A stretch of 31,530 nucleotides of DNA from a virus. Lineage: Duplodnaviria; Caudoviricetes. The first letter of the stretch is position 1. Each line of letters starts with the position of its first letter. Shown here piece by piece: positions 4,841-24,850 of the stretch. The position numbers and the translations under genes are program-made. The notes under the pieces were generated by a model that did no database searches, was not told where the DNA came from, and was given only the letters and a program-made list of their open reading frames with translations. The DNA lies in IMG/VR virus record IMGVR_UViG_3300023281_001028, positions 1 through 31,530 of that record; one strand, given 5' to 3'.

Positions 4841-4952
4841 GGGGTGTATCGTCCGGGTCGTGTTATCGCGTCAAGAACGCTGGGATGTGGTGCTACTGGT
4901 CCTGATCGGGCTGATCCTGGTCGGAGGATGCCACTACCTGGCCTACCGCTGA
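4839..4952 (+). CDS. Antisense small membrane peptide (37 aa from ATG 4839, or 30 aa from GTG 4860)
   Basis: RQERWDVVLLVLIGLILVGGCHYLAYR*; GC3 codons CTG GTC CTG ATC GGG CTG ATC CTG GTC; no clear RBS. Confidence 0.4.
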   Translation: MGCIVRVVLSRQERWDVVLLVLIGLILVGGCHYLAYR

Positions 4953-7900
4953 AGAGTCCGGTCCAAGTACTTCTTATTGAAACGGCTCATCAGAAGCCGC
5001 AGGCGCTCCTCCAGTGAACGTCGGCGCTCCGGGTCCTCCTCGGCCCTAGCTGCCTTGCGAAGCTTCGTGGCCTGCTTACGCGCAGCCTTGCCGGCATCCA
5101 TGAGGCTCAGGGCCCCACGACCGTCCTTGCGGATCTCCATGGCCTTCCTCGAGGCCCCCAGTTCCCGGTGGAGCTTGACCCGGGCGTCGATCCGCTGGAT
5201 CTCCTCGAGGTTGTCGTAGAAGTCCCCGGTAATCGCCCCATCCCAGGGCTCACCGTAGAACCGGCGCACGAACGGCACGTCCCTCCAGGGGAGATCCTCC
5301 GAGGGCTTCGAGACCACCTGAGTGATCCGCTTGCCGAGGCGCGCCAGGCCACCCAGGTACGCCATGTAGAGGTGGTCGAGGGTCTCCGGGCTGACCGAGA
5401 CCTTGCCCTCTTTCACCGCGTCCCCGCCCGTGAACTCGTTGACCCACTTGGCCGCACCCTTCGAGATGTTCGTGACCGAGTGGAAGTACTTCTCCGAGTC
5501 AGGCCGGGCCAGCCCGAAGGGGTTCTCGCTCGGGTAGATCGGCCCGCCGAAGAAGGTCTTGTTCTCCCCGATCTGCACCGCAGGGTCGATCAGCGTGGGC
5601 GACAGCGCCTGCAGGAACGTGTTCTCCGTGACCGGGCTGAAGCTGTTCCAGATGGCCGACGTGACCGAGCCCACCGCCTCCGACTTGGGCTTCCCACCCC
5701 ACATCGCCGCACCCAGCATCGTGCCCAGGGCGTGGAACACGTTGAACCCGTAAGGCAGGGGGAGTTTGAAGTACTCCCCGCTCCCGTCCGACCGCATCAC
5801 GATCAGGTTCCGCTCCTTCTCCCAGTCGTCGATCTTGTCCCAGTGGTTCTTCCCGTCGTCGTCATCCCCCGCGATCAAGCGATTGATCGAGTCCAGGATC
5901 ATCGACATGGCAGCAATGCTGACCGCCACCTTCTGCACGCGCTTCGATGTCTGCAACGCAGTGATCGTGCGCCACGTCCCCTGCACACCCGCAGAGAAGA
6001 ACATATAAAACGAGTTCAGCACCGTTCCCCACTCGCCCTTGCGGTTGAAGTTGACGGTGAGTTCCTTGGCCTTGCGGGCTGCTTCCTTCTCGCTGACGCC
6101 GGCCTTCAGCAGCTGCCCGAAGTAGGCGATACGCACGCCGTTCTCCACGGCGCTGTTGGCGTCCTCGATGAACTCCATGAAGTGCCTGCCCGCAGCTCGA
6201 GCACGGCCCTCCTTCAGGGCCTTCGTGAACTTCTCCTGCACCTCGCCGGCATCCACAAGGTGAGCCCACCCGACCTTCCCGCCAGCGGCCACGAACCTGC
6301 GCGCCAGCTTCCCGAAGGTGGTGTTCACGTCATCGTTCCGCACATGCTCCCACATCCCCCGGATGGCAGAGGGCACGTCCTTCACCACCCGCCGGGCGAT
6401 CCCCGAGATCTCGTCCCCCTGCATGGTGATGGACGCTGTCTGCAGGTCACGCACCAGGTTAGAGACGATGAACTCCGGGTCCCAGGAGGTGTTCATGGCA
6501 GCTATGATCCTGGTCACCCGCTGCAGGATCTTCACCGCACCGCTGGGGTGGACCAGCCCGACGCGGTTCAGGCTGTTCGCCAGCAGCGGATTGCGGAACC
6601 GGACGATGTGCTCTTCGCCACCGACCTTGTACCGGAAGGTGGGGCCCTTCTTCTGGTCAGGGGTCCAGCCCTCTGCACCCTCGGGACGCTCGACCTCCTC
6701 CATCGGGAGCAGGTCGGGGTTGTCAGCCTGGAGCTGGTGCAGCGCGACCCCCACGAGGTTGTACTCCGACCGCACGATCCCATGGGCGTCCTGGGCGAAC
6801 GCCTGCATGATAACGTTGTCGGCCTTGGTCGTGCGACCCTTGGCCCGCATCAGCTCCGTCCCGCCAGTGGAGAAGCCCTTCCCCCGAGGCCGGGGCGGCC
6901 CCTCTTCCACGTCCAGGGTCCGCAGGGGGACGTAGTTCGGGTAGATGGCCCGGAGGTGGTCGCGCTCCTCCGCGGAGATCAGGCCCGACACCACCCTCCG
7001 GTCCATGCCCTCGTCCAGCATCGTGCGGATCAGGCTCGAGATCTTCGACAGGCGCTTGTCCTTGCCCAGCCGGGCGATGATCTCATTGGCCTCGCTGGTC
7101 TTCATCCCCGCGGCGGGGTTGTTCTCGTGGTCGAAGGGGGACTGCTTCGCGGAGAGGCGGGTGGCCGCCTTCTGCAGGGCTTTGACCTTGGCCCGCAGGC
7201 CCTCGATGTCCGTGCCCGTGGTCCCAGGCCGGTTGCTCAGGAGAGTGATCTCCTTCTTGGCAGCCGACACCGCAGCCCGGATCTCCTCCGCACGGTAGCT
7301 GCGCTTGGCGAACTCCTCGTTCCGCTCCTCCACGTGCAGGGCCATGGACAGGTCGGAGGCGTCCTGGACAGCCTGGTCGTGGGTCCGGTCCCCGGTGGCC
7401 CCGTACCGCTCGAGGAGCTTCTTGATGGGCTCGAAGAACCGGCGCTCGCTCTCTTCCTGCAGGTTCTCGACCTTGCCGGCCAGGCGCACGATGACGGCCT
7501 CGATGTCCGAGTCGTCGGTGACCTTGGCCCCCTTCTCCCGCAGCCGACGCATGGTCAGGCGGACAGGCAGGAACTCGTTCTGAATCTTCCGCAGGAAGGT
7601 CTCGTAGAGGCTCTCGGGCGGCTCGTCCAGGGCCTCGAACAGGGGGACGGCCTCGCCCTCTTCCCGCTTGCGCGGGTGCTTGCCTGCGTTCCTGCGGTGA
7701 GGGTGAATGTCCTCGCCAGCGAACTTCGGCGCGAACGTGGAGAACCCCTCACCCACTACAGAGGCTCGCATCTCGGGGGTCAGGGGAAGCGTGGGGACCG
7801 TAGCAGCGGGCTTGGCCGCGATGGCAGCCTCAGCCTCAGCTCTTGAGGGGTAGTCAAGGATGGAACCGTCATCAACCCGATAGTCGATGCCCATCATTAC

Positions 7901-10900
7901 GCGCCACTTTTGACCATCAGTGACGGCACGGGGGCGCTCACCCAGTTCCCCCCGCCCCACCTTCACCCCGAACCGCTTGCCCAGCTTGTTGGCTGCGTTG
8001 ACCAGGATCCCGCCCTTGCCCTTTTGAGGGGGGTCGTAGAAGGCTTCCATTCCTTCCTTGCGGGGAAGGGACGTGCCCGCGTCCTCGGTCTGCATCCGGG
8101 CCCAGACGCGCTTCGCCACCTTCGTAGGATCTGCTGATTGCTCACGGGTGAGCACGCGCCTCACCACGTCGAACAAGTCCTGTTCGGTGCGGACCACAGT
8201 GCCCGTTTCCTCTTGCAGGATGCCCCGCGCACGCGCCTCGCCTTCGATGTCCACGCCACCCGCGTGCCCAGACCGCTGCTCGGTTGCAGAGACGCGCCAG
8301 TGGTCGCCCTCACGGACCCACGCAACCTCTTCTGACCCCCACCGCTTGAACTGCTGTTCCCCCGTAGTCCAGGACACGGCGTCGAACCCGTTGTCTGCTG
8401 CCCACTTGATGAGCCTCTTCAGAATGAGAGACGGCCAGGACCGTTTGAAGGGTGCGTCGGGGACGGCATTGGACTCAAAGCTGCGAGCCATGTCTCGGGC
8501 CTTCTCCATCGCGTCCACTTCGCTGTCAGCTTTCACAAACCCGAGTGACTCGCCATCTCGAAGCGCATCCCACACCTTGTTGTTTACGTGCCGCACATCC
8601 ACTTCCCCAGCGCCGTGTGCGTACCCCTTCTTCCGCCCTTCCTGAAACCAGTCTGCCTGGCCCTCTTCCATGAAGAGCACGTCTAGATATCCTTGGTCGG
8701 CAAGCTTCTTCTCGAAGTAAGGGCGGTCCTTTTCGGGGATGTGCAGCCCCTCTAGCGTGTGGATACGCCGCTCATTGAACCTGATATGTGCAATGACGTT
8801 CGGGATGTCCCCGTAGTGGCCGCCGGTGAACACCTGAGCGGCAGCCTCGTTCGAGGGGGCGTCTCGCCGACCCTCGTACCACCAACTTGGAGGAGGCAGC
8901 GTCAGCAGCAGTTCCCGGTAGTTCTCACCACCGGGTTCCTGGTAGTCGGCGTGGCGGGTGGGGGCACCACCATCTGAAAGGCGGCGGTTGTCCCCCGACG
9001 TGCGGTACTCGGTAACGAGGTCCCCGATGACCCAGTCTTCCATGTCGTCAGATGAGTAGTCCCCGGGCTCACCGCCCAAGTACTGCACTGCTTCTTCCCG
9101 CAGTTCTGCGTAACTCATTTCCCCAAGGTGAGCCTCATAGGCTTCTGGCGAGATCCCCGCTTCAGCGCCATCCCCCAGCACCGTCTCTCTCACCTCTACC
9201 GCGTTCGCTGCCAGCCACTCGAGGGTCTCCTGCTTTGTCACGTTCTTGCGGCCCTCCAGGAACTCATCCAGGCCCACCCACTTCCACTCGTCCTCGGTGA
9301 TGCCCGGGGCCTTGCGGAGGACATCCCCGAGCTGGTGGGCGGTGAACTTCTTCTGCTGCATCCCCTCCACTGCGCGAGACATGGCGGAGAACCAGGGAGG
9401 GGAGGCAGAGGCCTCGCCCGCGAAGCGGATGTCGGGGTTCCGCGGGTCAAAGGTCCCCCGGTTCCCCGTTGCACTCTTTATCTGGGTGGGGGTGAAGGCG
9501 ACCCAGGATCCGCGCGGGGAACGCGAGTCCCACATGGAATAGTCCTCGGCTAGATGCGCCCCGTCGAACCCCTCCCTGCGAAGGCGCTCCACCACCCCCT
9601 TATCGTCCAATAGAACAAATGCGTCGTTCTCCTGCCCAGCAACTCTTCGGATGTCCGCGTCAGTTGCTGGGTTCTGGATGCTCAGGTAGACGGGAAAGAG
9701 CCTGGACTCGTCGGTCGCAAACTCGCTCTCCTCTCCCGTGTCCTCGTCGTATAGCCCACCCCCGTCATGTCGTTCCGGGCTTGCGTATGACGAGGCCATG
9801 TCGGCATCGCCAAAGAAAGCGGGTGTGATGAAAGAGGTTATCGGCAGCCCGGTAGCCGTCCCGTGGTACACCACCAGCGGGTCCCCGTTCTCGTCTACTA
9901 CCTTGCTCTGCCCGAACCAGGCGTTGAACTCGGGGGAGGTGACTTCACCCGCGAAGCGGACGGCTACTTCTGCTTCGCGGGGGGCTTGGACTTGGGCTTG
10001 GCCACCGGGGTTGCCCCAGCCTTCTTGCCGGCTGTACCGGTCGAAGACCGCCTGGACCCGCGGGGCGAGAACATCTCCGACCCACCCGAGTAGATCGGGT
10101 GGTCCTTCTTCAGCAATCCGAGATCGATAATCTTCGCCATTGGGATTCTCCGTCCAGTCGTTATCGACAAGATTGCCATCCGTGCTGAAGGCACCAAGAT
10201 AAATCTTCTCGAACTGTAGTGTAGCAGCAGCCCGCTTCACCAGGGCCACAAACTCAGGGTTGCTTTCGACGGCCCCGAAGTTGACCACCCGCATGCCCAT
10301 GGGGCTCGAGATCAGGCCCGCACTGCCCGTCCCCAGGCCTGAGAGCCCGAGGGATTGCATCTCCGCGTCCACGGCATGCCACAGGGCCTGCGCCTCCTCC
10401 TCAGTGAAGGGCCTCCCGACATCCAGGTCGGTCCCGTTGGCGGCCTTCTTGGTCCCCTTCCAATGGGGGCGGTGGTAGCCGACAGCCTCCTGGTAGGTGA
10501 TCAGCCCCAACACCGAAGCGTACACGTCCAGGATCTGCCTCTGGGCCGCGTCGATCTCCGCGGGGGCACCCTTGCCCGGGGCCATGGGGACGACGCGCTG
10601 CGTTCCAGGAGACACCTGCCCCTGCCAGACACCGGGGCCGACCGCGTCCGGGTTGTCCACCAGCAAGCCAAGACGGTGGGCGAGGAGGTCGTTCCCGTTC
10701 TCGTCCACGAGGGCACGCTGCACGTCCTGCTGGAACCGAACCCGCTTCTCCCAGGTGGCGTTGTAAATACCGGGCAGAATGCCAGTCGAGACACCAGGCT
10801 GCGCTTCCCAGGAGACCTGTCCGACGTGACGGCGAAGACCGTCCTCGAAGTCGAACTTGGCCAAGGCAGTATCGTCGGCGGTGGGCTTGTGCTTGCGCGC

Positions 10901-13900
10901 TGCCTCGAGCCAGTTGCTGCGGTGCGCGGCAGCATTGTGGATGACCCGGGTCTTCTTCTTCTTGCCGTCCTTGACGATCTCCTTGAACGAGATCCAGCCC
11001 TCTTTTTGGCTGCTGTCCTCGACCCGCTTCTTCACCCCCGGGTTCTCCATTCGGGCCTTCATCGCAACCCAGATGGCAGCCTGCACCTGCTGAGGTTCCC
11101 ACCCCAGCTTCTTTGCCAGCAGGTTCAGCTCGGTCTCCATGAAGGCGTACTGCCGCTCGGTCGGGGCGTCCTTCCCATAGAAGGCTGCACGCATCATCCA
11201 CATGTCGATAGTTGCGCCCTGCCTGCCGGCGGCACCCTTGTCGATCATGCGGAGCAGGTTCACGTAGAAGTTGCCAGTCTTCTCTCCCGACCAGAATGCG
11301 TCGGTATCGTCCAGCGCCTCCTGGGCCTTCTTGTCCGCGGACCCCGTTCGCACACTGATCGGGTGCCCGGCCTGGTACTGCGCCCAAGCGCGGAGAGCGA
11401 ACGTGGTGTTGGTGTCCACCTTGGCCTGCGGCGAGTAGATGGCCAGCAGAGCAACGAACTTACGCGCCTCTGCTTTGTCCCCCCCGGTCATGCGGAGAAC
11501 AGCCTCGCTCGAGGCCTCGTACCAGAACCTGCCGGGCTTTCCCTCCATGGCCAGGACCCGCAGCCAGCGGCGAAGCTTGCCAACCGTGCCCTTCGTGTTG
11601 AACTCCGGGGGAGCGCCAAGGTACACGCCGTCGTCGGTGACCTCGTGCTTGCGAATGACGCCCGCTCGACTGTATGCGACCCGCTCCCCGCTCAGAGCAG
11701 ACTGCACTCGAGGGGCAGCCCCGGCGGTGAACTGGAGCCCACCCTCAACCACTCTCCCCCGGATGCCGGCCGGCAACCTCGAGCGGATCTCCTTCGGGTC
11801 CCCAGGCACGAACAGAGTCCCAGCCTTTTCCCCCGCGAACTGCGGAGCCCGTGGCTTCGCCGCAGCCTTCACCTCCGCTCGAGCCTCGAAGGCCGTCTGA
11901 AACAGAATCGCCGCCTGAGCCCTGGCCTGGGAGGGGCTCGAGATCCCCGCGTCCTTCCAGATGTCCTTGCCCGTGATCGACTTGACGATCTTCCGCAGGG
12001 CCTTGATCAGCTTGTCCAGCAGGGAGGGGTTCTCCTTGGCCAGAAGCTCCACGCTGGCCGCACCCTCAGGCGTCGAGAGCATCTCGAAGTAGGCCACCAA
12101 GGTCTCAGCCTGAGTCGCCAGGGCCTCTTCTTCAGCCTCGGCCTCGCTGAACCGCGCCTTGTACGCCGCTGTGCCGGCCTTTTCGTCCCCCTTGTAGTTC
12201 CGGGCCACCCAGTCCGCTTCGTGGATCCTGCGGCCTTCCAGGAGCCCCTGAGGGTCAGCCATCTTGACAGCGCCCATGAGGGTCTGGAGGCCCTCTGAGC
12301 CCTTGCCCCCCATCTCGCCGGCCACCACGTGGACCAGCTCGTGATAGGACACGTCCATCGGGTCCTCGATCTCGCTGTTGACGAAGACCTGATCCCCCAC
12401 CAGGGCGGCCTTGGCCTTCATCCCCTTCACGAACTGGACCTTCAGGCCCAGCCCCTTCATGCGCTTGGTGGTGGCCTGCTGGCCCTCGGTCTCCCCCTCC
12501 ACGACCCCGTAGGAGGCGTGGTCCTGCCCCTCAGCCGCAGCGAGAAGCTCCAGGCCACGCTCGGAGCGCCCCTTCTCCGCAGCCTGCCCGCCGGCCTTCT
12601 CCCGCAGGAACTTGTTCCGGGCCTCCCGCTCCGCCTTGACCTTCTTCCGCTCTGCGGAGGTCTTGGGGGGAGCGGACGTACTTGCGTCTGCACCAGACGC
12701 TTTTGCGTAAGTAGCGGTTTCCTCTTGACTCTCCTCCTCAGTCAACTCCTCGACCCACTCCGCGGCGGTCTTGGTCTGGTCCCCGAAGCCAATCGCCGTG
12801 GGCTCCCCAGACTCCTCGTCCAGCTTCGCCATGTTCGTGACGAACTTGAGCTTGCTCGCCTTCTGCTCCGGGGTCATCTCCGGCGCAGGCGCGACCTTCG
12901 GGTCCTTCCCCGCAGCCACAGCGGTGATCCCACCGACCACCCCCCCCTGCAGGGCAATGGTCCCCCAGAGGACGAGGTTCTCCTTCAGGGTCGTCGGGAA
13001 GGCTCCCTCCATCGACGCGAACGTCTCCGGGTCAGCCGCCGCCAGGGCCTCTCGGATCGCGCCGCCGAAGTACTCTTCGCCCGCCTCCTCGAGCAGGCCG
13101 TCCATGCCGCCCTTCTTCAGGAGATCAGCTGCGGCCTTCGCGCCCTTCTTCCCCGCCACGTGGGAGAACACCGCGTGCTGGTACGCACCCACCTTCGCCA
13201 CCCAGGGGAGGTTCTTCAGGGCAGGGCCGGACATCTCCGTGAACCACTCGATCCACACGTCCACACCGGACTCGACCATGTGGTTCGCGGCCACATCCCA
13301 GTCCTGAGCGAGAGCCACCTGCACCTGCCCAGACTCGTCCAGGCCAAGCCCGTAGTTCTTCTGGAACGCCTGCTGCTCCGCGTGAGCCATGATGCGCCCC
13401 GCACCCACGGGCGTGCGCAACATCTCGCTGGCCACCATGAGCGAAGTGCCCTGCACCCCACCCTTCAGCAGTGCTCCCGCGAACCGCTTCATTGCGCCCT
13501 CGGTCAACTGCGGGGCAAGACTCGTCGCGCTCCAGCTTGAGAACAACTTCGCCGCCTTCGGTCCGAACTTCTTCCCGATCAACTTCGCCGCCGTGGAGAG
13601 CCCTTTCCCTACGGGCCCACCCAAGGCGAACATCTCAAGCATGAACGGCACGGAGCCGGTGACGCCCTCTCCAATTCCACCCGCGACAGAGCGCGGGCGG
13701 ATCGTCCAATAGAAGTAGTCCTCGACGGCCTGGCGTTGCTCCGGGCTCCCCCCCCCGCCGGCCATCGCGTTCATAGCCTCCTCGAGCGCCTTCTTTGCGG
13801 GTCCTTCGCCCACGCCCTCCAGGAACGGGATCATGTTGACCAGCCCCGTGGGCTGCCCGTACTTGCCCCGGGTTGCCTCTTCCCAGAACCCTACCGGCTC

Positions 13901-14062
13901 GAGGTACTTGCTCCCCAGGTTGCCGATATTACTGACCGCCCTGTTGAGGGAGCTTGTCTGCGGGACCTCGGGGTCGGTGTCTCCCTCCAGGCTGGACTGC
14001 AGCCCAGACAGGTTCTTGATCGCTGCCGCGAGTGAGCTGGGGGCGGCTGGATCCTGAAGCAT
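4943..14062 (-). CDS. 3039-aa large polyvalent ejection (internal virion) protein: zincin + glycosylase-like + ART + GNAT-like + LPD38
   Basis: HELVH at 12329-12343; WY/KTGNF/TIDMW/QAAIW; VVYHGT...QIKSATGNRGTFDP; EEGQADW; C-terminal VNFNRKG, KLPLPYG, ENKTFFGGPI, VSPETLDHL (LPD38-type); follows two ejection genes. Confidence 0.88.
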   Translation of the reverse strand: MLQDPAAPSSLAAAIKNLSGLQSSLEGDTDPEVPQTSSLNRAVSNIGNLGSKYLEPVGFWEEATRGKYGQPTGLVNMIPFLEGVGEGPAKKALEEAMNAMAGGGGSPEQRQAVEDYFYWTIRPRSVAGGIGEGVTGSVPFMLEMFALGGPVGKGLSTAAKLIGKKFGPKAAKLFSSWSATSLAPQLTEGAMKRFAGALLKGGVQGTSLMVASEMLRTPVGAGRIMAHAEQQAFQKNYGLGLDESGQVQVALAQDWDVAANHMVESGVDVWIEWFTEMSGPALKNLPWVAKVGAYQHAVFSHVAGKKGAKAAADLLKKGGMDGLLEEAGEEYFGGAIREALAAADPETFASMEGAFPTTLKENLVLWGTIALQGGVVGGITAVAAGKDPKVAPAPEMTPEQKASKLKFVTNMAKLDEESGEPTAIGFGDQTKTAAEWVEELTEEESQEETATYAKASGADASTSAPPKTSAERKKVKAEREARNKFLREKAGGQAAEKGRSERGLELLAAAEGQDHASYGVVEGETEGQQATTKRMKGLGLKVQFVKGMKAKAALVGDQVFVNSEIEDPMDVSYHELVHVVAGEMGGKGSEGLQTLMGAVKMADPQGLLEGRRIHEADWVARNYKGDEKAGTAAYKARFSEAEAEEEALATQAETLVAYFEMLSTPEGAASVELLAKENPSLLDKLIKALRKIVKSITGKDIWKDAGISSPSQARAQAAILFQTAFEARAEVKAAAKPRAPQFAGEKAGTLFVPGDPKEIRSRLPAGIRGRVVEGGLQFTAGAAPRVQSALSGERVAYSRAGVIRKHEVTDDGVYLGAPPEFNTKGTVGKLRRWLRVLAMEGKPGRFWYEASSEAVLRMTGGDKAEARKFVALLAIYSPQAKVDTNTTFALRAWAQYQAGHPISVRTGSADKKAQEALDDTDAFWSGEKTGNFYVNLLRMIDKGAAGRQGATIDMWMMRAAFYGKDAPTERQYAFMETELNLLAKKLGWEPQQVQAAIWVAMKARMENPGVKKRVEDSSQKEGWISFKEIVKDGKKKKTRVIHNAAAHRSNWLEAARKHKPTADDTALAKFDFEDGLRRHVGQVSWEAQPGVSTGILPGIYNATWEKRVRFQQDVQRALVDENGNDLLAHRLGLLVDNPDAVGPGVWQGQVSPGTQRVVPMAPGKGAPAEIDAAQRQILDVYASVLGLITYQEAVGYHRPHWKGTKKAANGTDLDVGRPFTEEEAQALWHAVDAEMQSLGLSGLGTGSAGLISSPMGMRVVNFGAVESNPEFVALVKRAAATLQFEKIYLGAFSTDGNLVDNDWTENPNGEDYRSRIAEEGPPDLLGWVGDVLAPRVQAVFDRYSRQEGWGNPGGQAQVQAPREAEVAVRFAGEVTSPEFNAWFGQSKVVDENGDPLVVYHGTATGLPITSFITPAFFGDADMASSYASPERHDGGGLYDEDTGEESEFATDESRLFPVYLSIQNPATDADIRRVAGQENDAFVLLDDKGVVERLRREGFDGAHLAEDYSMWDSRSPRGSWVAFTPTQIKSATGNRGTFDPRNPDIRFAGEASASPPWFSAMSRAVEGMQQKKFTAHQLGDVLRKAPGITEDEWKWVGLDEFLEGRKNVTKQETLEWLAANAVEVRETVLGDGAEAGISPEAYEAHLGEMSYAELREEAVQYLGGEPGDYSSDDMEDWVIGDLVTEYRTSGDNRRLSDGGAPTRHADYQEPGGENYRELLLTLPPPSWWYEGRRDAPSNEAAAQVFTGGHYGDIPNVIAHIRFNERRIHTLEGLHIPEKDRPYFEKKLADQGYLDVLFMEEGQADWFQEGRKKGYAHGAGEVDVRHVNNKVWDALRDGESLGFVKADSEVDAMEKARDMARSFESNAVPDAPFKRSWPSLILKRLIKWAADNGFDAVSWTTGEQQFKRWGSEEVAWVREGDHWRVSATEQRSGHAGGVDIEGEARARGILQEETGTVVRTEQDLFDVVRRVLTREQSADPTKVAKRVWARMQTEDAGTSLPRKEGMEAFYDPPQKGKGGILVNAANKLGKRFGVKVGRGELGERPRAVTDGQKWRVMMGIDYRVDDGSILDYPSRAEAEAAIAAKPAATVPTLPLTPEMRASVVGEGFSTFAPKFAGEDIHPHRRNAGKHPRKREEGEAVPLFEALDEPPESLYETFLRKIQNEFLPVRLTMRRLREKGAKVTDDSDIEAVIVRLAGKVENLQEESERRFFEPIKKLLERYGATGDRTHDQAVQDASDLSMALHVEERNEEFAKRSYRAEEIRAAVSAAKKEITLLSNRPGTTGTDIEGLRAKVKALQKAATRLSAKQSPFDHENNPAAGMKTSEANEIIARLGKDKRLSKISSLIRTMLDEGMDRRVVSGLISAEERDHLRAIYPNYVPLRTLDVEEGPPRPRGKGFSTGGTELMRAKGRTTKADNVIMQAFAQDAHGIVRSEYNLVGVALHQLQADNPDLLPMEEVERPEGAEGWTPDQKKGPTFRYKVGGEEHIVRFRNPLLANSLNRVGLVHPSGAVKILQRVTRIIAAMNTSWDPEFIVSNLVRDLQTASITMQGDEISGIARRVVKDVPSAIRGMWEHVRNDDVNTTFGKLARRFVAAGGKVGWAHLVDAGEVQEKFTKALKEGRARAAGRHFMEFIEDANSAVENGVRIAYFGQLLKAGVSEKEAARKAKELTVNFNRKGEWGTVLNSFYMFFSAGVQGTWRTITALQTSKRVQKVAVSIAAMSMILDSINRLIAGDDDDGKNHWDKIDDWEKERNLIVMRSDGSGEYFKLPLPYGFNVFHALGTMLGAAMWGGKPKSEAVGSVTSAIWNSFSPVTENTFLQALSPTLIDPAVQIGENKTFFGGPIYPSENPFGLARPDSEKYFHSVTNISKGAAKWVNEFTGGDAVKEGKVSVSPETLDHLYMAYLGGLARLGKRITQVVSKPSEDLPWRDVPFVRRFYGEPWDGAITGDFYDNLEEIQRIDARVKLHRELGASRKAMEIRKDGRGALSLMDAGKAARKQATKLRKAARAEEDPERRRSLEERLRLLMSRFNKKYLDRTLQR
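9964..10140 (-). CDS. Overprinted 58-aa basic protein in the +1 frame inside the polyvalent gene
   Basis: GGAG-N7-ATG; MAKIIDLGLLKKDHPIYSGGSEMFSP...KPPAKQK*; all 10 Lys codons are AAG while the main frame becomes A/T-ending here. Confidence 0.7.
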   Translation of the reverse strand: MAKIIDLGLLKKDHPIYSGGSEMFSPRGSRRSSTGTAGKKAGATPVAKPKSKPPAKQK

Positions 14063-15678
14063 CAGTCCCCGCCTCGCCTACCTTCACGGCGGGCCTGCTC
14101 CATAGTCCGCACCCCCTGCGTTTGCTGACCGGGAACCGCCCACTCCTTGAGATTGTGCCGCCGCATGTAAGCCTCGATGTCCCCCACAAGATCCATCGGC
14201 ACGCCACCGGGGCGGAACTTCGCAGCTTCCTCCATGATCACCTCTCGTAGGCCAACCCCGGACTTGTACCCGTTGCGCTCGGGCATGCGCGCCTTGATCC
14301 GCCTCAGAAGCCCACGCCTGGCCCCGGCGATTCCCTTCTCTGTCCGTTCCTGGAGGGACTTGGCCTCCCTCTCGCCCTTGGACTTGACGTGTTCCAGGCG
14401 CGCACGCACCTCGGGATCCCCCGGGTCGAGCCCGAGTTCAGCCATCCCCACAGCCATGACGGTCTCCTGCCAGGCCCCCTCCAGGGCGACCCACTCCTCG
14501 AGGTAGCCCTCAGCATCGTCCTCGTGAACCTTGGCCCACTCCTCGTAGGGCAACAGAGGCTCCATCAAACCCGTCTGCAGAGAGGCGTCGATACGCTCCC
14601 ATTGCTTGGCAGCCTCCTGGTTGGCGATGTGAGATTCCATCTCTGAGCTTGCCCCGGGACGGTTGGGGATTGCCTTGAACGGCTTGCGCGTGCCCTGCTC
14701 AAGCTCCGTCCCCATCATGCCCTTGGACTCACCATCCAGGTCGTCGCCAGGCAAAATCGTGACGTTTGACTTGGTACTGAACTGCTCTTTGAGGGCCTGC
14801 ATTGCCTGCTCGGCAGTCATGTCCTTCGACTCCCAACTATTGACCAGGGACTTCATCTGTTCCGGGTCCACCGCCTCCGCGAATTCGTCCTGCTTCAGGG
14901 CGTCCCACTTGGCTACGGTCTCCTCGAACTGCTCCTCGATCTCGTGGATGTTGTCGAAGTTGTCGATATGGCCCTGCAACTCCTGGATGATCGCTGCTGA
15001 CTTTTGGTTCGGCTCGGCCTCGTTCCACTCCGCCGTCCAGTCCTTGACCTTGCGCTCGGCAGCCATGCGGTAGCCACCCTGCCGATGCTGCTTGTGCTGC
15101 GCGTCACCGATCATCTCAAGCAGGCCCTGCATGTCCCCGTTCTGGGCCATCTGCGCACCGTTCTGCGTAGAGCCGGGAGCGACCAACCCGTCGTCCTCCA
15201 ACCCCTGAAGGGTAGCGATGCTGGTCTGGGTAGACCGCGCCATGTCCTGGGCGGCCTCCTTCTGCATGACCTTCTCCTGGTCGGCCACGCTCAAGCCAGG
15301 GAAGATCTTGGCCGTGGACGGGGCCATGTTCTTCATCAGCCGCGCCATCGTCGGAGCCATCCCCGTCCCCTTGATCCCCATCATCCCGGCTACGCCGTCC
15401 GCGGCAGCACCCATAGCCATGCCGCCGGCCTCCATCCCCGTCCGGGCCATGGACTGACCCTCGGGAGTTCCGACACCAACCTGGCTCAGGGCGTTGTGCT
15501 TCTGCATCGACTCTTCTTGAGCGATCAGCTTCTTCGCCTCGCCCATCTCCATCTCGAAGATCTGCTGGCGACGGCCCTCTTCCGCGGACGCCTGGGCAGC
15601 CTTCTGCCCGGCCATCAGTCCCTGCACGAACTGATCACCTCCAGTGTTCCCCGACCGCCCTGTGATAATGATCGGCAT
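14062..15678 (-). CDS. Internal virion/ejection protein (538 aa)
   Basis: M/Q/A/E-rich, helical-looking; FVQGLMAGQ N-terminus; middle of three ejection genes; TGATG coupling. Confidence 0.7.
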   Translation of the reverse strand: MPIIITGRSGNTGGDQFVQGLMAGQKAAQASAEEGRRQQIFEMEMGEAKKLIAQEESMQKHNALSQVGVGTPEGQSMARTGMEAGGMAMGAAADGVAGMMGIKGTGMAPTMARLMKNMAPSTAKIFPGLSVADQEKVMQKEAAQDMARSTQTSIATLQGLEDDGLVAPGSTQNGAQMAQNGDMQGLLEMIGDAQHKQHRQGGYRMAAERKVKDWTAEWNEAEPNQKSAAIIQELQGHIDNFDNIHEIEEQFEETVAKWDALKQDEFAEAVDPEQMKSLVNSWESKDMTAEQAMQALKEQFSTKSNVTILPGDDLDGESKGMMGTELEQGTRKPFKAIPNRPGASSEMESHIANQEAAKQWERIDASLQTGLMEPLLPYEEWAKVHEDDAEGYLEEWVALEGAWQETVMAVGMAELGLDPGDPEVRARLEHVKSKGEREAKSLQERTEKGIAGARRGLLRRIKARMPERNGYKSGVGLREVIMEEAAKFRPGGVPMDLVGDIEAYMRRHNLKEWAVPGQQTQGVRTMEQARREGRRGGD

Positions 15679-15681
15679 GGT

Positions 15682-16296
15682 CTACCCCCACTTCCCCATG
15701 GCGAAGCCCAAGGGGCCCGCGAACTGGCTGAACAGCGAGTCACCAGCCTGGAACTGGAAGTTGCCCAAGTTCCCCGCAAGCATCCCGCCCATCTGCCCGG
15801 CCATCTGAGGCTTCTTGGCCAGGTAGTCCGCAAGCTGCGCCAGGCTCCCGCCCACCGCCATCCCACGGTTCGCCTGCAGGCCACTCATCAGCCCTGCCTG
15901 CTGGTCAGCCACCCCGCCCAGGGCGCGGTCAGTGTCAGCACCAATCCCCCGCGCCAGGTTCGGCGCAGCCGTGCTCGAGTACAGCCCCGTACTCGCCAGG
16001 TGCCCTCGAGCGTTGCCGAGCTTCTGCTTCTCACGCGCAAGGATGCTCTTCTCCGCACCCCGCCCGTACCGGCTGGCGGTGGCCAGGGCCTTGTCGTACC
16101 CGCCACGCACCTCGTCCACCTGCTGCTCCATCAGTGGGGTGCCCTTGGCGAAGGCGTCATTCAGCATGCCGAACAGCGAGCCCTGGCCCTGGTCGCCCAC
16201 ATTCCCGAAGAGCGCCTTGATCTGAGCAAGCTGCTGCTTGTTCAGGTTCATGGCCTCCTTGGCTCCCGTGTTGAAGAGGCTGTCGAAGAGTCCCAT
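15682..16296 (-). CDS. Small ejection protein (P22 gp7-like position), 204 aa
   Basis: MGLFDSLF start; G/A/Q-rich; LASTGLYSS motif; directly after the nozzle. Confidence 0.72.
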   Translation of the reverse strand: MGLFDSLFNTGAKEAMNLNKQQLAQIKALFGNVGDQGQGSLFGMLNDAFAKGTPLMEQQVDEVRGGYDKALATASRYGRGAEKSILAREKQKLGNARGHLASTGLYSSTAAPNLARGIGADTDRALGGVADQQAGLMSGLQANRGMAVGGSLAQLADYLAKKPQMAGQMGGMLAGNLGNFQFQAGDSLFSQFAGPLGFAMGKWG

Positions 16297-19200
16297 TACT
16301 TGCCTACCTTCCTGCGTCCCGCCTGGGTCACGCGGACCACGGTGTGCTCATGAGCCCACCGCTCCGACACCGTGCCCGAGATGTATCTGATCCACACATA
16401 CGCTCCACGCGCACGCACTGCGATGCGATTGAACCCAGGCCTAAGGGTCCCGCGCTTGACAGCCGAGCCCTTCCGGTCCGCCTGGTTGCTGACGTACAGC
16501 TCGTACTGCACACCATTCTGATCATAAGCCAGGGTCACCTGCAAGGTCACCAGCCGCCCCTCCATGTCCGGAGAGGCAAACTCGTACGGCCCCATCAGCA
16601 CGCTGCTCACCACCCGGTTCCCGTCATCGTTCGCGGAGTCCCGGTCCCAGTACAGGAGCTTCCCGTCCTCCGTCCCAATGCACAGCCTGCGGTCCAGGGG
16701 GTCGTCCCCGTCCAGCACGAACACCGTAGTGGGCTGCACCGCCGTCGCGCTGAAGGCGATGTCGTACCAGGCCGCGGTCTTCTTCTCCCAGAACCACCCG
16801 CCCACAGCAGTCCCGCCAGCACCGGTCGGGAGCTGGAGCAACAACAGCCCTTCCTCACGAGGGGCCCACGTGAGAGAGACGCGGTAGTCCTCAAGGTTGA
16901 TGTTGTCCAGCGCCCGCTCGATGCGGTCTTCACTGATGCGCACCACCCGACCGGCGGAGTACGCATACACCCCGAGCTTGGACCCCTTGTAGTAAGTGAT
17001 CCCCTCGGGGTCCTTCGTCCAGCACTGCTGCCCGAACGCGATCCCCTCCACTCGACTCAGTTCCTCGATATGAGGCTGGTTGTTCGACCCCACCGCTGCA
17101 CCCACCGGGTCATTGACCAAGATCTGCACGGTGTGGTCTCCGCCGATCAGGGCGGTCTTCTTGTCCAGGGGGATGAAGGCCGTGATAATGTCCGGGCTCT
17201 CCCCCAGGCTGACCGGGTTGTTCAACGAGATCGCCATCTCGAGGGACGGGCCCTCTGCGGGGAACTCGTTCCAGTCCAGGTGCGTGCCCATCTTCCCGAA
17301 GTGGATGTTGTGCGGGTCGTCGTGACTCACCACCACCGGGCGACCACGCCACGAGGTCATCAGCTTGATGTTGTCCGGGACGTGCCCACCGCCAAGTTCG
17401 GCCTTCCAGTCGGTGACCTCGTCCGTCTCTGGGTCGTAGACCACCTTCGTCGTTGAGTCCGAGAGGAGCACCTTCCCGAAAAGTTCCGTTCCCGTGATCC
17501 ACTTCGAGGAAGCGTCGAAGACCGCAGACCCGCCGGTTGGCGTGGTGTACGACCCCCCGCGCACGAACCTCTTCAGGTCCCCGCCCGTGACCAGAATGGA
17601 CTTTACGTCCCGGTGGGTGGTGACGGCGTTCAGAGCCGTCTTGATGTTCGCGGTCAGCTTCCACAGGTTGGTGGCGGTCAACTGCTCAGTGGCGTCCGTG
17701 GTGAGGTCTGAAGCAAAGTAGAAGTACCTCGCTCCACCCGCGGGGTCCGACCGGTAGTTCGGAGGATTCGGGGCCAGCGCCACGCCAGCGCCAAGATAGA
17801 TCTTGCTGTTGGGCTGAGGCAGCCCCAGGCGAAACCGCCTCTCCGAGATCCCGTTGTCTCCGCCGTCGCCCTTCCACCGGTATAGCTGGATGGAGTCAGT
17901 GGTCGCAGCGAGGGGCTGGTAGATGTCGTCGTCATCATCCACCACCATGCGCATGCCCGCGGACCCCGTGTTCGGGGAGCGGACGAGCGTGTCCCAGTGG
18001 GACCATGCCTCGGGCACGCGGGTGCCTCCCGCAAGCTGCGTGGTGATCGTGGGGTGGGTTCCGCTCGAGGCCAGGGAGATCGTTCCGGGTGACGCAGGCA
18101 GGGCCGCCAGGTTCACCTCGAACGACACCGTAGCGAGGGAGGCCACAGCGGTGATCACATCGAAGTAGGCGTGAGGCGTGTCACTCACATACTCGACATA
18201 CATCTGATCCATGGTCCTGGTCGCCATGACCGTGGTGGTCGGGCCGCCAGAGATGTCAATGTGCGTGTCCAGGGTGGGAGTCGCGGTGTACGTGAACACC
18301 TTCGCGGTCCCGTCCAAGGTGATCGTCAGCGTGTCCGACTCCGAAGGCACGCCCGCGTAGGTGATCAGCCCCGTGCGCAGCACGTTCGTCCGGTAGGTGT
18401 TGCCCAGGTCCAGGAGCTTCTTCACCACCACCGACCTCTGGAAGCTGCCCGTGGACTGCCCCCGCTGGTTGCCGGCCACGAACTCCCCGCAGGTGATCAC
18501 GTCATGGTCCGAGTCCACGCACACCCCATACCCGGCACCGGAACCAGCGACGGCCCAGGTCAGGCTGCCGTACAGGCCCGAGTACTTGGCGATGATCGGG
18601 TCCGCGCTCTTCAGCGCCAGGGCGTTGGCGTCCTCCGCATCAGGGAGGCCCGTAAAAGTGTTGATGGGCGGCTTCGCTGTCCCACCGAAGGGGTGATCGT
18701 TGAACAGTGGCGTGGTATCAGACGTGCCCAAGCCATTCGGGAGAATGTGCGACACCCCCCACTTGTGGGCCAGGTAGCCTTCGAGCTTCTCTACCTCGTT
18801 GGGCTCGGGGGCTGACCCGCCGCCATCTCCATAGGGGTAGTCAGCAGGGTCAATGTCGCTCCAGGCCTCGCCGTTGTTGATCGCCTGGCCAACCGAGAGG
18901 TTGAACGCCGTGTCGTGCGGGTTGGTAGTGGTGTCTCCCAGGATGGTGATGGCCTCTGCCACCCACCCGCTGAAGCTGCCCAGCCCGTAGTTGAAGATGT
19001 CGATTGTGCCGCGGTAGGACTTGACGTACCCACCAAAGTTGGACATGCCAAAAGCCGGCCCAGCTACGCTGCTCAAAGGCCATGCTCCGGACGCGATGTC
19101 CGCGATCGGCACGCCGTTGACGCGGATCATCGTCTGATCAGAAGCCGGGTAGTCGAACGTGAACGTGATGATCGCCACGTCTGTCTCGTTGTCTGTGCTC

Positions 19201-20864
19201 CCGTCGAACAGCAGGCTGTACTGGTACTCGTAGGCGTTCGCGTCCAGATCTCCCTGAACAAAAATTGTGAGCCACCCAGGGTCAGCCGTGTGCTCAGCTA
19301 GGCGGTCGGTGGCCGGCGTCCCGGTCAAGTTCGTGTAGTTCGCCTTCTTGATGTTTGCAAGGATTCCAAACTGCAGGTTCAGGTCTTTGTGCTGGAACAC
19401 CACGCTGGGGCCCGCATTGCGATCCAGCCGCAGGACCATCCCCGTCACGAATGTGCTCACAACAGGCGGCATCAGCGCCCGATTCTTTGGCCAAGCGTCG
19501 GTCTCATCCGCCTTGACCGAGTGGTCCCAACTGCCGTAGGTAAGAAGCCCCTGCCCCGGAACCATGTCCGGACCATCCACGAAAGGCCAGTACGGGAGGT
19601 TTGGGACGGTTGTCCCGTAGAGCAGGTCAAACTCGCGAGTGCCTGGGTGAACGTCCGCCGAGGTTATCACCCGAGACGCAGCCCTTGTGAGCGGGAGGGG
19701 GATAGCCGCCGCGCTGAACCGAACGCCGGGGCGTATGCCAAAGGCCGACTCGTCATGTGTAGGAGCTGGACGGCTCGCTGTCTTCGCCGGATCCGTGCCA
19801 ATGAACGGGCGCAAGGTCTCGTCGAGCACGCTCACCGTGGAGTTCGTCACCAGGGTGGCGTCGTCAATGTGGAACTTGCGGTCCTCCCACACATCTACAG
19901 CCTGCCCGTCAATCGGGTTCGTAGACACGGTCGCGTCTGTCCAGGACCAGATGCGCTCTTCGCCGCTGGCGTACTGGTGAGGCACCCACCCGTCAGTGTG
20001 AGCGGTGAACCCGTCCACGGTCTTGTTCCTGTCAGCGTTGGCCGGGCACGTCACGAAGACCGCGCCAGCTTGCGACACCGCGATGGCCGCCGCGGGATAC
20101 GGGACAGCCCAGGAGTGCAGATGCACCCCGTTCTGCTCCCCGTTGATGTAGACGCTGACCTGTGCCTTCTGAGGCCCGTCCTCCGTGGGATCGATGTCCT
20201 CGAGCACGTAGAGGAACCCGCTACTCTCCCGGAAGTCGATGGGAGAACCTATCGTCTCCACGTCCCAGGTCACATCGAAGAACCCCTTGTCCGTGGGCGC
20301 AAGCCGGAACAGGTTCCCCGTCGAGACCCCCTTCGCGGATCGCGCTCCCACGTACACGTTCAGGTCGCTGTCCACCTCAAGCCGCGGCACCGGGACCAGG
20401 GAGGCATTCAGCGGCACCCCCGTGAACAGGATCCGGTCGCCGTCCGGGCTGTACTGGGAGACAATCGCCTGCGCGTCCAGGATGTACACCGCGCCCTCGC
20501 GGTCGGTGGCCACGTCCAGGCCGGCGGCCTCTCCGATGGTCCGCGCCTCCCACTCCCGGAGCGCCTGGTTTCCCGCCCCGTACAGGTCCAGGGCGTTGTC
20601 TGCCGTGTACGCCCAGGTGGCCACAGCCTTGCCCGTGGTGATCGAGGACGCCCAGTCGATCTTCGTTCCCTGGGCCTTCGCATAGCCCGAGAGAAGCTCC
20701 GTGAAGCCCGGACGCTGCGCGCCACGGATCCTCCCCGTCTTCGGGTCCAGACCCAGGACGTTTGAGGCCTCCTCCGTCGTACCAGGCTCCTGGTCCGAGA
20801 AGGCGAAGTTGTCCGACCGCCCGCCCACGGGCCAGGGCAGCTTGAAGGGGCGGAGGCTCGGCAT
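16296..20864 (-). CDS. Tail nozzle / tubular protein B (P22 gp10-like) with inserted propeller and LamG-like domains, 1522 aa
   Basis: ATG at 20864 (TGATG overlap); WPVGG...SNV...GRIRGAQRPG N-terminus; RISEDRIE and RARGAYVWIRY C-terminus; position after the adaptor. Confidence 0.75.
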   Translation of the reverse strand: MPSLRPFKLPWPVGGRSDNFAFSDQEPGTTEEASNVLGLDPKTGRIRGAQRPGFTELLSGYAKAQGTKIDWASSITTGKAVATWAYTADNALDLYGAGNQALREWEARTIGEAAGLDVATDREGAVYILDAQAIVSQYSPDGDRILFTGVPLNASLVPVPRLEVDSDLNVYVGARSAKGVSTGNLFRLAPTDKGFFDVTWDVETIGSPIDFRESSGFLYVLEDIDPTEDGPQKAQVSVYINGEQNGVHLHSWAVPYPAAAIAVSQAGAVFVTCPANADRNKTVDGFTAHTDGWVPHQYASGEERIWSWTDATVSTNPIDGQAVDVWEDRKFHIDDATLVTNSTVSVLDETLRPFIGTDPAKTASRPAPTHDESAFGIRPGVRFSAAAIPLPLTRAASRVITSADVHPGTREFDLLYGTTVPNLPYWPFVDGPDMVPGQGLLTYGSWDHSVKADETDAWPKNRALMPPVVSTFVTGMVLRLDRNAGPSVVFQHKDLNLQFGILANIKKANYTNLTGTPATDRLAEHTADPGWLTIFVQGDLDANAYEYQYSLLFDGSTDNETDVAIITFTFDYPASDQTMIRVNGVPIADIASGAWPLSSVAGPAFGMSNFGGYVKSYRGTIDIFNYGLGSFSGWVAEAITILGDTTTNPHDTAFNLSVGQAINNGEAWSDIDPADYPYGDGGGSAPEPNEVEKLEGYLAHKWGVSHILPNGLGTSDTTPLFNDHPFGGTAKPPINTFTGLPDAEDANALALKSADPIIAKYSGLYGSLTWAVAGSGAGYGVCVDSDHDVITCGEFVAGNQRGQSTGSFQRSVVVKKLLDLGNTYRTNVLRTGLITYAGVPSESDTLTITLDGTAKVFTYTATPTLDTHIDISGGPTTTVMATRTMDQMYVEYVSDTPHAYFDVITAVASLATVSFEVNLAALPASPGTISLASSGTHPTITTQLAGGTRVPEAWSHWDTLVRSPNTGSAGMRMVVDDDDDIYQPLAATTDSIQLYRWKGDGGDNGISERRFRLGLPQPNSKIYLGAGVALAPNPPNYRSDPAGGARYFYFASDLTTDATEQLTATNLWKLTANIKTALNAVTTHRDVKSILVTGGDLKRFVRGGSYTTPTGGSAVFDASSKWITGTELFGKVLLSDSTTKVVYDPETDEVTDWKAELGGGHVPDNIKLMTSWRGRPVVVSHDDPHNIHFGKMGTHLDWNEFPAEGPSLEMAISLNNPVSLGESPDIITAFIPLDKKTALIGGDHTVQILVNDPVGAAVGSNNQPHIEELSRVEGIAFGQQCWTKDPEGITYYKGSKLGVYAYSAGRVVRISEDRIERALDNINLEDYRVSLTWAPREEGLLLLQLPTGAGGTAVGGWFWEKKTAAWYDIAFSATAVQPTTVFVLDGDDPLDRRLCIGTEDGKLLYWDRDSANDDGNRVVSSVLMGPYEFASPDMEGRLVTLQVTLAYDQNGVQYELYVSNQADRKGSAVKRGTLRPGFNRIAVRARGAYVWIRYISGTVSERWAHEHTVVRVTQAGRRKVGK

Positions 20865-21604
20865 CAGGTCGGCCCCGGTACGGATACGTCCCGCCAGTCT
20901 CCTGCCCACTGGGAGCCCTGCGCCATGCCGTTCGTCAGCACCCCGTAGTCGGGCTGCATCCCCGCATCGCGCTTCGCAGCTCCCCGCCAGTCAGGGCCCT
21001 GCACCACCTCCATCAGGCGGGAAGCTCGAGACCCGCCCTCAGGCTCGCTCCACCCCGCAGCGCAGGCCCGCAGGCACTCGAGGAAGGCCCCCTCCAGGAA
21101 CTCCGGCAGCACCAGCAGGGCGTTGTCAGAGACCACCTCCTGCCACCCGCGGCGGTAGTAGAGGTTCAGGGCCGAGGCGTCCGTGGTCGTGGGGGTAGGC
21201 CACACCGCAAGGCGGGGCTGGGGAGGCCCGACCCCGGAATAGTCTTGCTCGATGGACGCCTCGTAGTAGAGCGTGGACCCCTGGGTGTTTTTCTTGAGCT
21301 TGATGATTCGCCCCAGCGACACCATTTCAAAGTCTGAAGTCAGACCCGCGGTGTCGATAGCGACGATGCTTTTGAAGTCACTCGGGAGGTCCACGTAATT
21401 TTGCGATGCCGTGAAGCCCACGGACACCACCGAGCCCTGAAGCCACTTCCACTCCCTCTGATTCACGAGGAAGTTTCCAGCGTCATTCACAAGCTCGATG
21501 ACCGAAAGCCCCTCGGGCAGACCGCTGTCATCGTCTCCACCTCCAGACGCTCCAAGGAGAGTCCGGATGTGAGCAGCGCAGCGTTCGACCGAGAGTCTTG
21601 ACAT
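20864..21604 (-). CDS. Head-tail adaptor / tail tubular protein A
   Basis: LVNDAG, WKWL, YVDLPSDF, LAVWPTP, LYYRR motifs typical of podovirus adaptors. Confidence 0.8.
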   Translation of the reverse strand: MSRLSVERCAAHIRTLLGASGGGDDDSGLPEGLSVIELVNDAGNFLVNQREWKWLQGSVVSVGFTASQNYVDLPSDFKSIVAIDTAGLTSDFEMVSLGRIIKLKKNTQGSTLYYEASIEQDYSGVGPPQPRLAVWPTPTTTDASALNLYYRRGWQEVVSDNALLVLPEFLEGAFLECLRACAAGWSEPEGGSRASRLMEVVQGPDWRGAAKRDAGMQPDYGVLTNGMAQGSQWAGDWRDVSVPGPT

Positions 21605-21620
21605 CGCATTGAAGGGTAGT

Positions 21621-21691
21621 GGGGGAGAGGACGGGGTAATGACCCCTCCCCCGGAGAGAGGACGACAAGCCGGGAGGGGGAGGTCCCTCCC
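21621..21691 (-). terminator. Two GC-rich hairpins after the capsid/decoration genes (possible terminator or processing site)
   Basis: GGGAGGG/CCCTCCC stem near 21672-21691 and GGGGT/ACCCC plus GGGGGA/TCCCCC near 21621-21652; no clean U-tract. Confidence 0.4.
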
Positions 21692-21704
21692 AGCCCGCGC
21701 TCAC

Positions 21705-22205
21705 CTACAGACCAGCGCCCTGGCCGAAGCCATGGATGCCGTCGAACAGGACCCAGATGGTCTCTGCGCTGCCAGAAGCGGTCGCCTCCAGCGGGATGGC
21801 CAGAAGCTTCTCGCCAGCGGCCTGCACGTCAGAGTCCAGGTTGTCCTGGCCATTGACGGCGGCCAAGCGGTCAGCTTCCTCGTCAACGAGGTTGGCTCCG
21901 ACCACGATCGCCTGCACGAGTCCGCGCACGCATACGGTCATTGCCGCATCGTCTGCGGCAGCCACAGTGACGATGCCGAAGTACCCATGCTGCATCCCGA
22001 TGGTCGCAGGCAGGATCACGTTCGAGAACCCAGACGTTGTAGCGCCCACGTCGAACGTGGTACTCGCCGCGTCGGTCTGGTGCAGATCGAACATCACCAG
22101 GTCGCCAACCACGCGAGCGCCGGAGCGATTCATCACGCGGACAAGCTCCTGATCGGGTTGGATCCCGAAGGTCCCGCCAATAGTGGGAACAGGAAAAGAT
22201 GCCAT
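21705..22205 (-). CDS. Capsid decoration/cement protein (166 aa)
   Basis: ATG at 22205 after AAAGGAG; GDLV...GIV...A...VCVRG...LAIPLEA pattern; directly downstream of the MCP. Confidence 0.72.
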   Translation of the reverse strand: MASFPVPTIGGTFGIQPDQELVRVMNRSGARVVGDLVMFDLHQTDAASTTFDVGATTSGFSNVILPATIGMQHGYFGIVTVAAADDAAMTVCVRGLVQAIVVGANLVDEEADRLAAVNGQDNLDSDVQAAGEKLLAIPLEATASGSAETIWVLFDGIHGFGQGAGL

Positions 22206-22221
22206 GGTTTGTTCTCCTTTC

Positions 22222-23430: not shown

Positions 23431-23456
23431 GGTCCCCTCCTTTGGGGATTACATGG

Positions 23457-24410: not shown

Positions 24411-24510
24411 CTCACCCTCCAATTTCCTTGTGTTCTGCGCCCTCTTGGAAGTCCTCTTTCGCTTTTCCCCCCACAAAGCCCCGTGGCCGGGACCATTGAG
24501 GAGGAATTCG

Positions 24511-24849: not shown

Positions 24850-24850
24850 G

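Follow-up and report, generated by a model that had tools for sequence, protein, structure and literature searches.

Short repeated border motifs read by an encoded protease are familiar from RNA-virus polyproteins and from the prohead-protease processing of T4- and phiKZ-like phages. The system described here, a polyvalent protein of 3,039 amino acids (aa) in IMG/VR record IMGVR_UViG_3300023281_001028 (Duplodnaviria; Caudoviricetes), carries the peptide FAGE at four module borders together with its own zincin-like metallopeptidase domain; the window analysed was the whole contig of 31,530 nucleotides (31.5 kb), which is possibly incomplete. The proteases of the RNA-virus and prohead systems are of other classes, and prohead proteases also cut head proteins, which here are without FAGE. 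Closer to the present protein are the polyvalent proteins of Iyer et al. 2017 (PMC5512222), for which autoproteolysis by the metallopeptidase (MPTase) was proposed and the processing of P1 DdrB was cited. These are likewise large multidomain proteins of the virion region with an MPTase, ART-PolyVal and LPD38; the HExxH...E pattern is shared, and the predicted order of secondary structure fits the MPTase topology. The zincin studied here is without the Asp three residues after HExxH that is a feature of one clade in the main text of that study, and its family, unlike the proteins as described there, shows a protein-specific junction word statistically. Neither a cleavage site nor a junction motif was named in the main text examined; the supplementary alignments could show these residues.

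P1 DdrB is also MPTase-bearing and proteolytically processed, but according to the same main text (PMC5512222) the processing precedes packaging and yields a single 76-kDa product; the protease was inferred and no repeated word was described. N4 vRNAP (gp50), in the passages available (PMC13434306), resembles the present protein in being a giant ejection protein that has flexible linkers, an HExxH domain and, at its N-terminus, a membrane-spanning region; it differs in containing an RNA polymerase and in being a single chain in the reported preparations. The phi24B protein gp47 bears LPD38 and a metallopeptidase and was detected in virions (bioRxiv 10.64898/2026.04.10.717836), and knockdown of the LPD38-bearing podovirus protein PTXU04_00025 impaired infection (bioRxiv 10.1101/2023.09.18.558157). 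Cargo modules of both differ from those found here, and processing is not reported in the passages of either source. The available parts of PMC9503650 and PMC13551039 held nothing on junctions, and a literature search outside subscription journals and the 2017 supplementary files found no description of such a junction word.

Four FAGE copies at module borders

The open reading frame (ORF) and the four copies are as follows.

4943..14062, minus strand: ORF of the polyvalent protein, 3,039 aa, from ORF and Pfam evidence; likely a large ejection protein
11828..11839, minus strand: FAGE copy 1, aa 742; post-zincin junction, probably joined by fusion to the conserved K[DA]G strand at the start of module 2
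9944..9955, minus strand: FAGE copy 2, aa 1370; boundary of module 2 and ART
9413..9424, minus strand: FAGE copy 3, aa 1547; at the conserved ART end (DIR-FAGE)
7712..7723, minus strand: FAGE copy 4, aa 2114; directly after GFSTFAPK

The modules follow one another in the order zincin, DUF7178, ART-PolyVal, GNAT-like and LPD38, and the protein is a podovirus polyvalent protein; an NCBIfam search with it gave no match. An earlier sequence-only reading of this DNA had placed FAGE at aa 742, 1370, 1547 and 2114, and its coordinates and codons were reproduced exactly. Phe was TTC in every copy; in copies 1 to 4, Ala was GCG, GCG, GCG and GCT, Gly was GGG, GGT, GGC and GGC, and Glu was GAA, GAA, GAG and GAG. 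That reading had also put the chance expectation at about 0.1 copies, in agreement with the computed 0.109 for the ORF (4 observed). When the protein was shuffled, some 4-mer occurred at least four times in 228 of 3,000 shuffles, and a 4-mer as rare as FAGE occurred four times in 39 of 3,000 (1.3%). The count by itself is therefore modest evidence, being moderately unusual. By position, no shuffle (0/3,000) gave any 4-mer with a copy in each of the four border zones; these zones amount to 5.5% of the chain and were set from the structure model and homologue alignment edges with the motif already known.

Each copy had been described as sitting at a domain boundary, and all four did lie at module borders defined from homologues, but not every border has FAGE: a scan of the whole ORF found none between the N-terminal domain and the zincin, nor within modules 2 and 5. 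The capsid, scaffold, portal and nozzle proteins of the contig were also without FAGE. A fifth candidate junction, RVAYSRAG (aa 797), was rejected, being conserved inside module 2 in P0002-P0004.

A protein-specific junction word across the family

The comparison set comprised 251 other proteins (P numbers) and 133 loci (L numbers). ART modules ended in a conserved N-x-G-x-F-D...I-x, followed by a word that varied between proteins and recurred within one. Among the matches listed, repeated words included FSPE in P0221, FQK in P0222, FSER in P0236, FSEQ in P0003 and FARR in P0074. Judged on these alignments, FAGE is not a unique motif: it is the variant found in one lineage of a general [hydrophobic]-x-[F/Y]-[S/A]-x-x word.

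Concordance was measured between the ends of two unrelated modules, to avoid duplicated ARTs. An ART end and a module-4 end were both present in 36 of 242 proteins. Over slots +1 to +3, the three residues after the aromatic slot, their identity was 1.44 within proteins and 0.68 after permutation (0/20,000; n=18 cluster representatives). With loci added, 0/10,000 permutations reached the observed value at each of three clustering thresholds (n=21, 31 and 38). For the ART end and the module-2 end, the corresponding numbers were 417/10,000 (n=4) and 49/10,000 (n=7). Since the patterns for module 4 and module 2 have the aromatic built in, it is the later slots that are informative; the locus scans picked DIR-type ART ends, and clustering removes relatedness only in part. 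These results show a family-wide rule, by which unrelated modules within a protein are brought to a common word at their ends, and the sequence-only reading was right in expecting homologues to repeat a junction motif of their own (0/10,000 for within-protein concordance).

HExxH or HExxxH was present in 227 of the 277 junction-bearing proteins. The zincin motif was missing in 23 of 127 locus ORFs, of which 8 had a zincin-bearing neighbour and 6 were cut by a contig end. Split polyvalent genes were seen in L018, L019, L057, L097, L099 and L102, and in P0156, P0159, P0175, P0192, P0196, P0220 and P0233; the second ORF was without a zincin motif and kept its junction words, and in the six loci the zincin is encoded by the ORF upstream. 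This second ORF often begins with a short Cys-bearing N-terminus of MAxxxNCL or MAxCTY type, perhaps a docking piece.

Other forms were observed near the ART end. FAGE or FAGQ stood two residues after the ART-end slot in P0076, P0079, P0136, P0139, P0141-P0146 and P0157, and in the ORF at 6188-15961 of L132. Most of these proteins carry what we take to be LPD23, and that FAGE or FAGQ may be the fixed start of an LPD23 module, a possible source or relic of the word. In the ART-repeat proteins P0130, P0131, P0203, P0207 and P0234 another element followed the ART end, aromatic-DE-x-KHPR-x-E-x-G-x-F, and several proteins similar to P0130 and its group had K or E at the aromatic slot; speculatively, the latter may be prohead-protease sites. 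Cultured phages with zincin motifs and candidate words were L134 10420-15369 (F116 gp60), L135 2486-9079 (PTXU04 gp25) and L137 2170-11562. The candidate words were ILFSRSG after the ART of F116, LFART in PTXU04, and QFARL, RFSRL and MFSRE in Vibrio 1.205.O. PTXU04_00025 has an HExxxH, and its junction words are candidates only.

The word travels with the zincin over the cargo modules

Zincin and ART were compared as companions of the word in 143 proteins that had an ART end and a single HExxH (115 representatives). Similarity of the ART-end word was 4.17 for the nearest-zincin neighbour, 1.28 for the nearest-ART neighbour and 0.93 for the background. The zincin neighbour was better in 72 of the 115 representatives and the ART neighbour in 38. 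Partial rho was small, at 0.096 for the zincin (0/500 permutations) vs -0.067 for the ART. In these sequences the word keeps company with the zincin and not with the neighbouring ART body.

Searching with just the zincin gave 11 matches including the query; one of them, the pyrin-repeat protein P0251, was dropped as an artefact. The relatives found in this way had mostly FA or YA words at their module edges (FAGQ, FAAE, FAAA, FAAK, YAGE, FAPR, FAPK) and some FSP or FSV, and the closest zincins carried FA[G/A/P] words. The ART of P0243, which has the zincin nearest to the query's, ends in FAGQ; in P0247 FAAE follows the zincin, and FAAA and FAAK stand before and after module 4; P0246 has YAGE after the zincin. 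At loci where module 2 was 55-62% identical to that of the query but joined to another zincin, it mostly ended in FSNR, FSQR, FSRR, FSDQ or similar words. The word is thus not passed on together with its cargo.

The zincin domain and the junctions at copies 1 and 4

The N-terminal part of the protein contains these features.

12878..14062, minus strand: N-terminal region, aa 1-395, common to zincin-clade relatives
12917-12973, minus strand: hydrophobic stretch, aa 364-382, hydropathy 1.54; a possible membrane anchor
11870..12565, minus strand: zincin-like metallopeptidase domain, aa 500-731, from an AlphaFold2 (AF2) model and structural matches
12329..12343, minus strand: HELVH (H574, E575, H578), nearly invariant in the zincin alignment
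12125..12127, minus strand: E646, predicted third zinc ligand, invariant in the zincin alignment (E147) and EE[GA]xA in the clade alignment

HELVH at 574 was the only HExxH in the ORF, and H574, E575, H578 and E646 were all conserved in the zincin clade. The HELVH zincin with a downstream Glu that had been read from the letters has, by these alignments, a predicted active site that is intact. The AF2 model covered aa 500-765, with a 15-sequence alignment and a predicted local distance difference test (pLDDT) score of 75.6. It contained a helix, three strands and the HExxH helix in an order that fits the zincin topology; secondary structure stopped near aa 731, and aa 720-754 were below pLDDT 50. 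In a VIA structure comparison the top rows were mostly zinc metallopeptidases (best Z 5.9, root-mean-square deviation 3.7, 110 aligned).

The 12 module-2 relatives listed have a strand G-[E/D/A]-[F/Y/H]-x-V ahead of K-D-G, with a junction word of their own some 17-20 aa further upstream. The query is without that stretch, and F742 stands at a hydrophobic strand position four residues before KAG. FAGEKA of copy 1 matches the post-zincin FAAEKA and YAGETA of the same zincin clade. The joint at copy 1 was probably formed by fusion of the zincin-side junction onto the second strand of module 2, with replacement of the first. A module boundary had been placed here; copy 1 does lie outside the zincin fold, but there is no free linker, F742 being in a strand position of module 2. 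A 204-aa candidate ejection protein (15682-16296, minus strand) has QFAG at aa 192 near its C-terminus, like copy 1, a three-residue match that is expected by chance.

At the homologous junction 4, after GFSTFAPK, the query has FAGE, P0247 has FAAK and P0249 has FAPK. GFSTFAPK itself (aa 2106-2113, about 7724-7747) stands for the usual G-x-P-L-F-S end of module 4 and is common to the query, P0247 and P0249; it has the appearance of an earlier junction to which a newer word has been added.

Proposed cleavage and alternatives

We lean slightly towards the prediction that FAGE is the site recognised and cut by the cis-encoded zincin, releasing the modules as separate proteins, which may be anti-host effectors as the sequence-only reading supposed. 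The chain would be packaged and ejected, as the gene position and the detection of LPD38-bearing phi24B gp47 in virions suggest, and the zincin would be latent until activated in the head or after delivery. Cutting during synthesis would require the modules to have packaging signals of their own, so later activation seems more plausible. The zincin, likely still on its N-terminal hydrophobic anchor since no FAGE lies between the two, would cut at FAGE and free modules 2-5. As the specificity of the protease drifts, selection would bring newly acquired modules to take on the word already in place. One candidate scissile bond is that between F and A, where a small Ser or Ala after the aromatic would suit the N-end rule; alternatively, a cut between the preceding residue and F would suit the strand position of F742. 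More tentative is a wider proposal, which we hold to be possible with the balance somewhat against it: a self-processing cassette system with a private code, in which each lineage's zincin reads its own 4-5-residue word, every acquired module is re-tagged with it, and a split gene has its word read in trans.

A number of observations weigh against cleavage by the zincin. The sequence-only reading had suggested checking whether motif and zincin co-vary; they did so when the zincin was set against the putative effector modules, but three attempts failed to tell it apart from the co-inherited LPD38 backbone. In the 41 of 115 representatives with an LPD38 core, neighbour scores were 3.09 for the zincin vs 3.64 for the backbone, and the zincin was better in 12 and the backbone in 18 of 34. 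With 53 representatives, for which some backbone windows were incomplete, zincin-only pairs scored 1.66 (background 1.82) and backbone-only pairs 3.46. A cleaner rerun with 52 representatives, designed after that result, favoured the zincin at the top 1% of pairs (8 vs 98 of 3,000), gave a tie at 2% and favoured the backbone at the top 5% (2,074 vs 47). One zincin clade had very different words (YSL, REDA, EQAM, ERRA); 50 of the 277 junction-bearing proteins were without HExxH or HExxxH; and 9 of the 23 zincin-less locus ORFs were complete with no zincin neighbour seen. The structural match of the zincin was weak (Z<8; Foldseek E>0.3). FAGE-742 lies within the stretch of the AF2 model with pLDDT<50, and copy 1 replaces the first strand of module 2 and overlaps a structural position, so that it lies partly inside a folded domain, yet outside the zincin fold and homologous to a real junction. 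According to the main text of PMC5512222, N4 vRNAP, ArdC and TraC1 are packaged or transferred without processing although they carry MPTases, and in the passages of PMC13434306 no degradation was seen of recombinant N4 vRNAP, a beads-on-a-string chain with HExxH.

The word may instead be a peptide signal for another co-inherited part, be it the LPD38 module, the ejection channel or another phage or host protease; in a variant it would be a docking or threading mark on an intact chain, with the zincin acting on a host target. That it tracks the LPD38 backbone about as well as the zincin, that the N4 chain showed no degradation, that some complete junction-bearing ORFs have no zincin motif nearby, and that the phi24B authors propose, in the passages available, a peptidoglycan target for the gp47 peptidase (bioRxiv 10.64898/2026.04.10.717836) all speak for such a signal. 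Against it, the word type persists with a different C-terminal module: between P0200/P0181 and P0172/P0190 zincin similarity is 0.43-0.76 and backbone identity 18-20%, and YS[L/I] words are in common, while P0246 and P0247 keep FA or YA words without an LPD38 match. Nor is a prohead protease among the annotations of the 31.5-kb contig, which may be incomplete, and with the head proteins also lacking FAGE its identity as a prohead-protease site was rejected. We regard a signal of this kind as unlikely, though a serious contender. The individual swaps, few and non-independent, point to the zincin; the word follows the lineage, and that the zincin reads it is the interpretation we find likeliest, not a finding.

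Recombination joints, short DNA homologies for module exchange that are homogenised and have no function at the protein level, would explain why the words are located where modules are swapped. There was a weak same-codon excess in non-homologous junction pairs (same codon 45 times at 79 identical-residue positions, against 37.8 +/- 4.0 expected), and copies 2 and 3 share one weak 29-nt repeat, 76% alike. That repeat, however, covers two copies only and is no better than many chance repeats in the gene, third positions differ across the four copies, and Ser flips between TCN and AGY at paired junctions in L022, L024, L049, L084 and L099. A long DNA repeat behind the four copies was sought and none was found. 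The view that the peptide and not the DNA is conserved was upheld by these comparisons; selection on the peptide appears to be the main signal, with a minor role for recombination possible, and joints as the whole explanation are quite improbable. Coincidence, arising from a conserved ART end and ordinary linker composition, is scarcely credible: an equally rare 4-mer did occur four times in some shuffles, the ART end is conserved as DIR[F/Y][S/A] regardless and copy 1 overlaps a structural strand position, but the positions were never matched by shuffling and the family concordance was 0/10,000, which largely refutes it.

Modules 2 to 5 and genomic setting

The remaining modules and the neighbouring genes are listed below.

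10004..11827, minus strand: module 2, aa 746-1353, containing DUF7178
11054-11545, minus strand: DUF7178, aa 840-1003 (PF23802, E 3e-15, above the curated cut-off)
9428..9937, minus strand: ART-PolyVal module, aa 1376-1545 (Pfam aa 1390-1538; PF18760, E 2e-13, above the curated cut-off)
7733..9406, minus strand: module 4, aa 1553-2110, with a weakly supported GNAT-like core
4946..7615, minus strand: C-terminal module, aa 2150-3039, carrying LPD38
5267-5848, minus strand: LPD38, aa 2739-2932 (PF18857, E 2e-44, above the curated cut-off)
14062..16296, minus strand: two small genes of 538 and 204 aa, whose position makes them candidates for ejection proteins
16296..28353, minus strand: podovirus-type virion block with a 1,537-aa nozzle candidate, SU10-type adaptor, major capsid, acidic scaffold-like, connector-like and terminase genes

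With LPD38, ART-PolyVal and DUF7178 all above the Pfam curated cut-offs, the polyvalent architecture recognised earlier was borne out. Module 2 had been called glycosylase-like, which was neither confirmed nor excluded: Pfam gave only DUF7178, a 16-sequence profile found no PDB sequence at E<=10, Atlas matches were DUF7178 clusters only, and the phage collection gave no match. Homologues of module 2 were found at 34 viral loci with 42-62% identity. One at L031 9488-11815 is interrupted by stop codons when read with table 11, and reading it with TAG=Q or with table 4 gave no long frame either; this copy has probably decayed and was left out of the analysis.

The ART has its His motif, YHG, at aa 1399 and no catalytic Glu of the H-Y-E type, Ser1519 being in its place. 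That Glu was found in just 87 of 466 homologous domains; its absence is, by this count, common in ART-PolyVal. A single-sequence ART scan of viral contigs gave no match. Module 4 had no Pfam match, and its GNAT-like label drew weak fold support from Foldseek, in which most top rows were GNATs with AtaT (E 0.01), KacT and TacT best and none at E<=0.001 (model pLDDT 64.5). It gave two partial matches in the phage collection, and in the Atlas only unnamed clusters below 0.9.

The polyvalent ORF is encoded beside virion genes, with the terminase, capsid and SU10 adaptor upstream, suggesting a podovirus layout in which the large protein stands where ejection proteins are encoded. The 538- and 204-aa genes had no confident family match, and the 1,537-aa protein is a probable nozzle by position alone. 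The capsid protein matched NF033394 at 78.3 bits, slightly below the cut-off of 80. Genes for an Erf-like annealing protein and SSB lie on the opposite strand (1827-3004, plus).

Meaning of the junction word

The family and its proposed processing were known; new here are a junction code specific to each protein and the finding that this code does not depend on the cargo modules. For the question, raised in 2017, of whether and where polyvalent zincins cut their own chains, the harmonised word names exact residues. Screens for anti-defence activity could take their true effector units from it, and it suggests how modules of unrelated origin come to be built into a single ejected chain. Should the zincin be the reader of the word, these would be new site-specific proteases paired with their substrates. 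If the private code holds, the cut sites of thousands of injected phage proteins would be predictable from sequence, and the family would amount to a collection of sequence-specific proteases whose sites are known.

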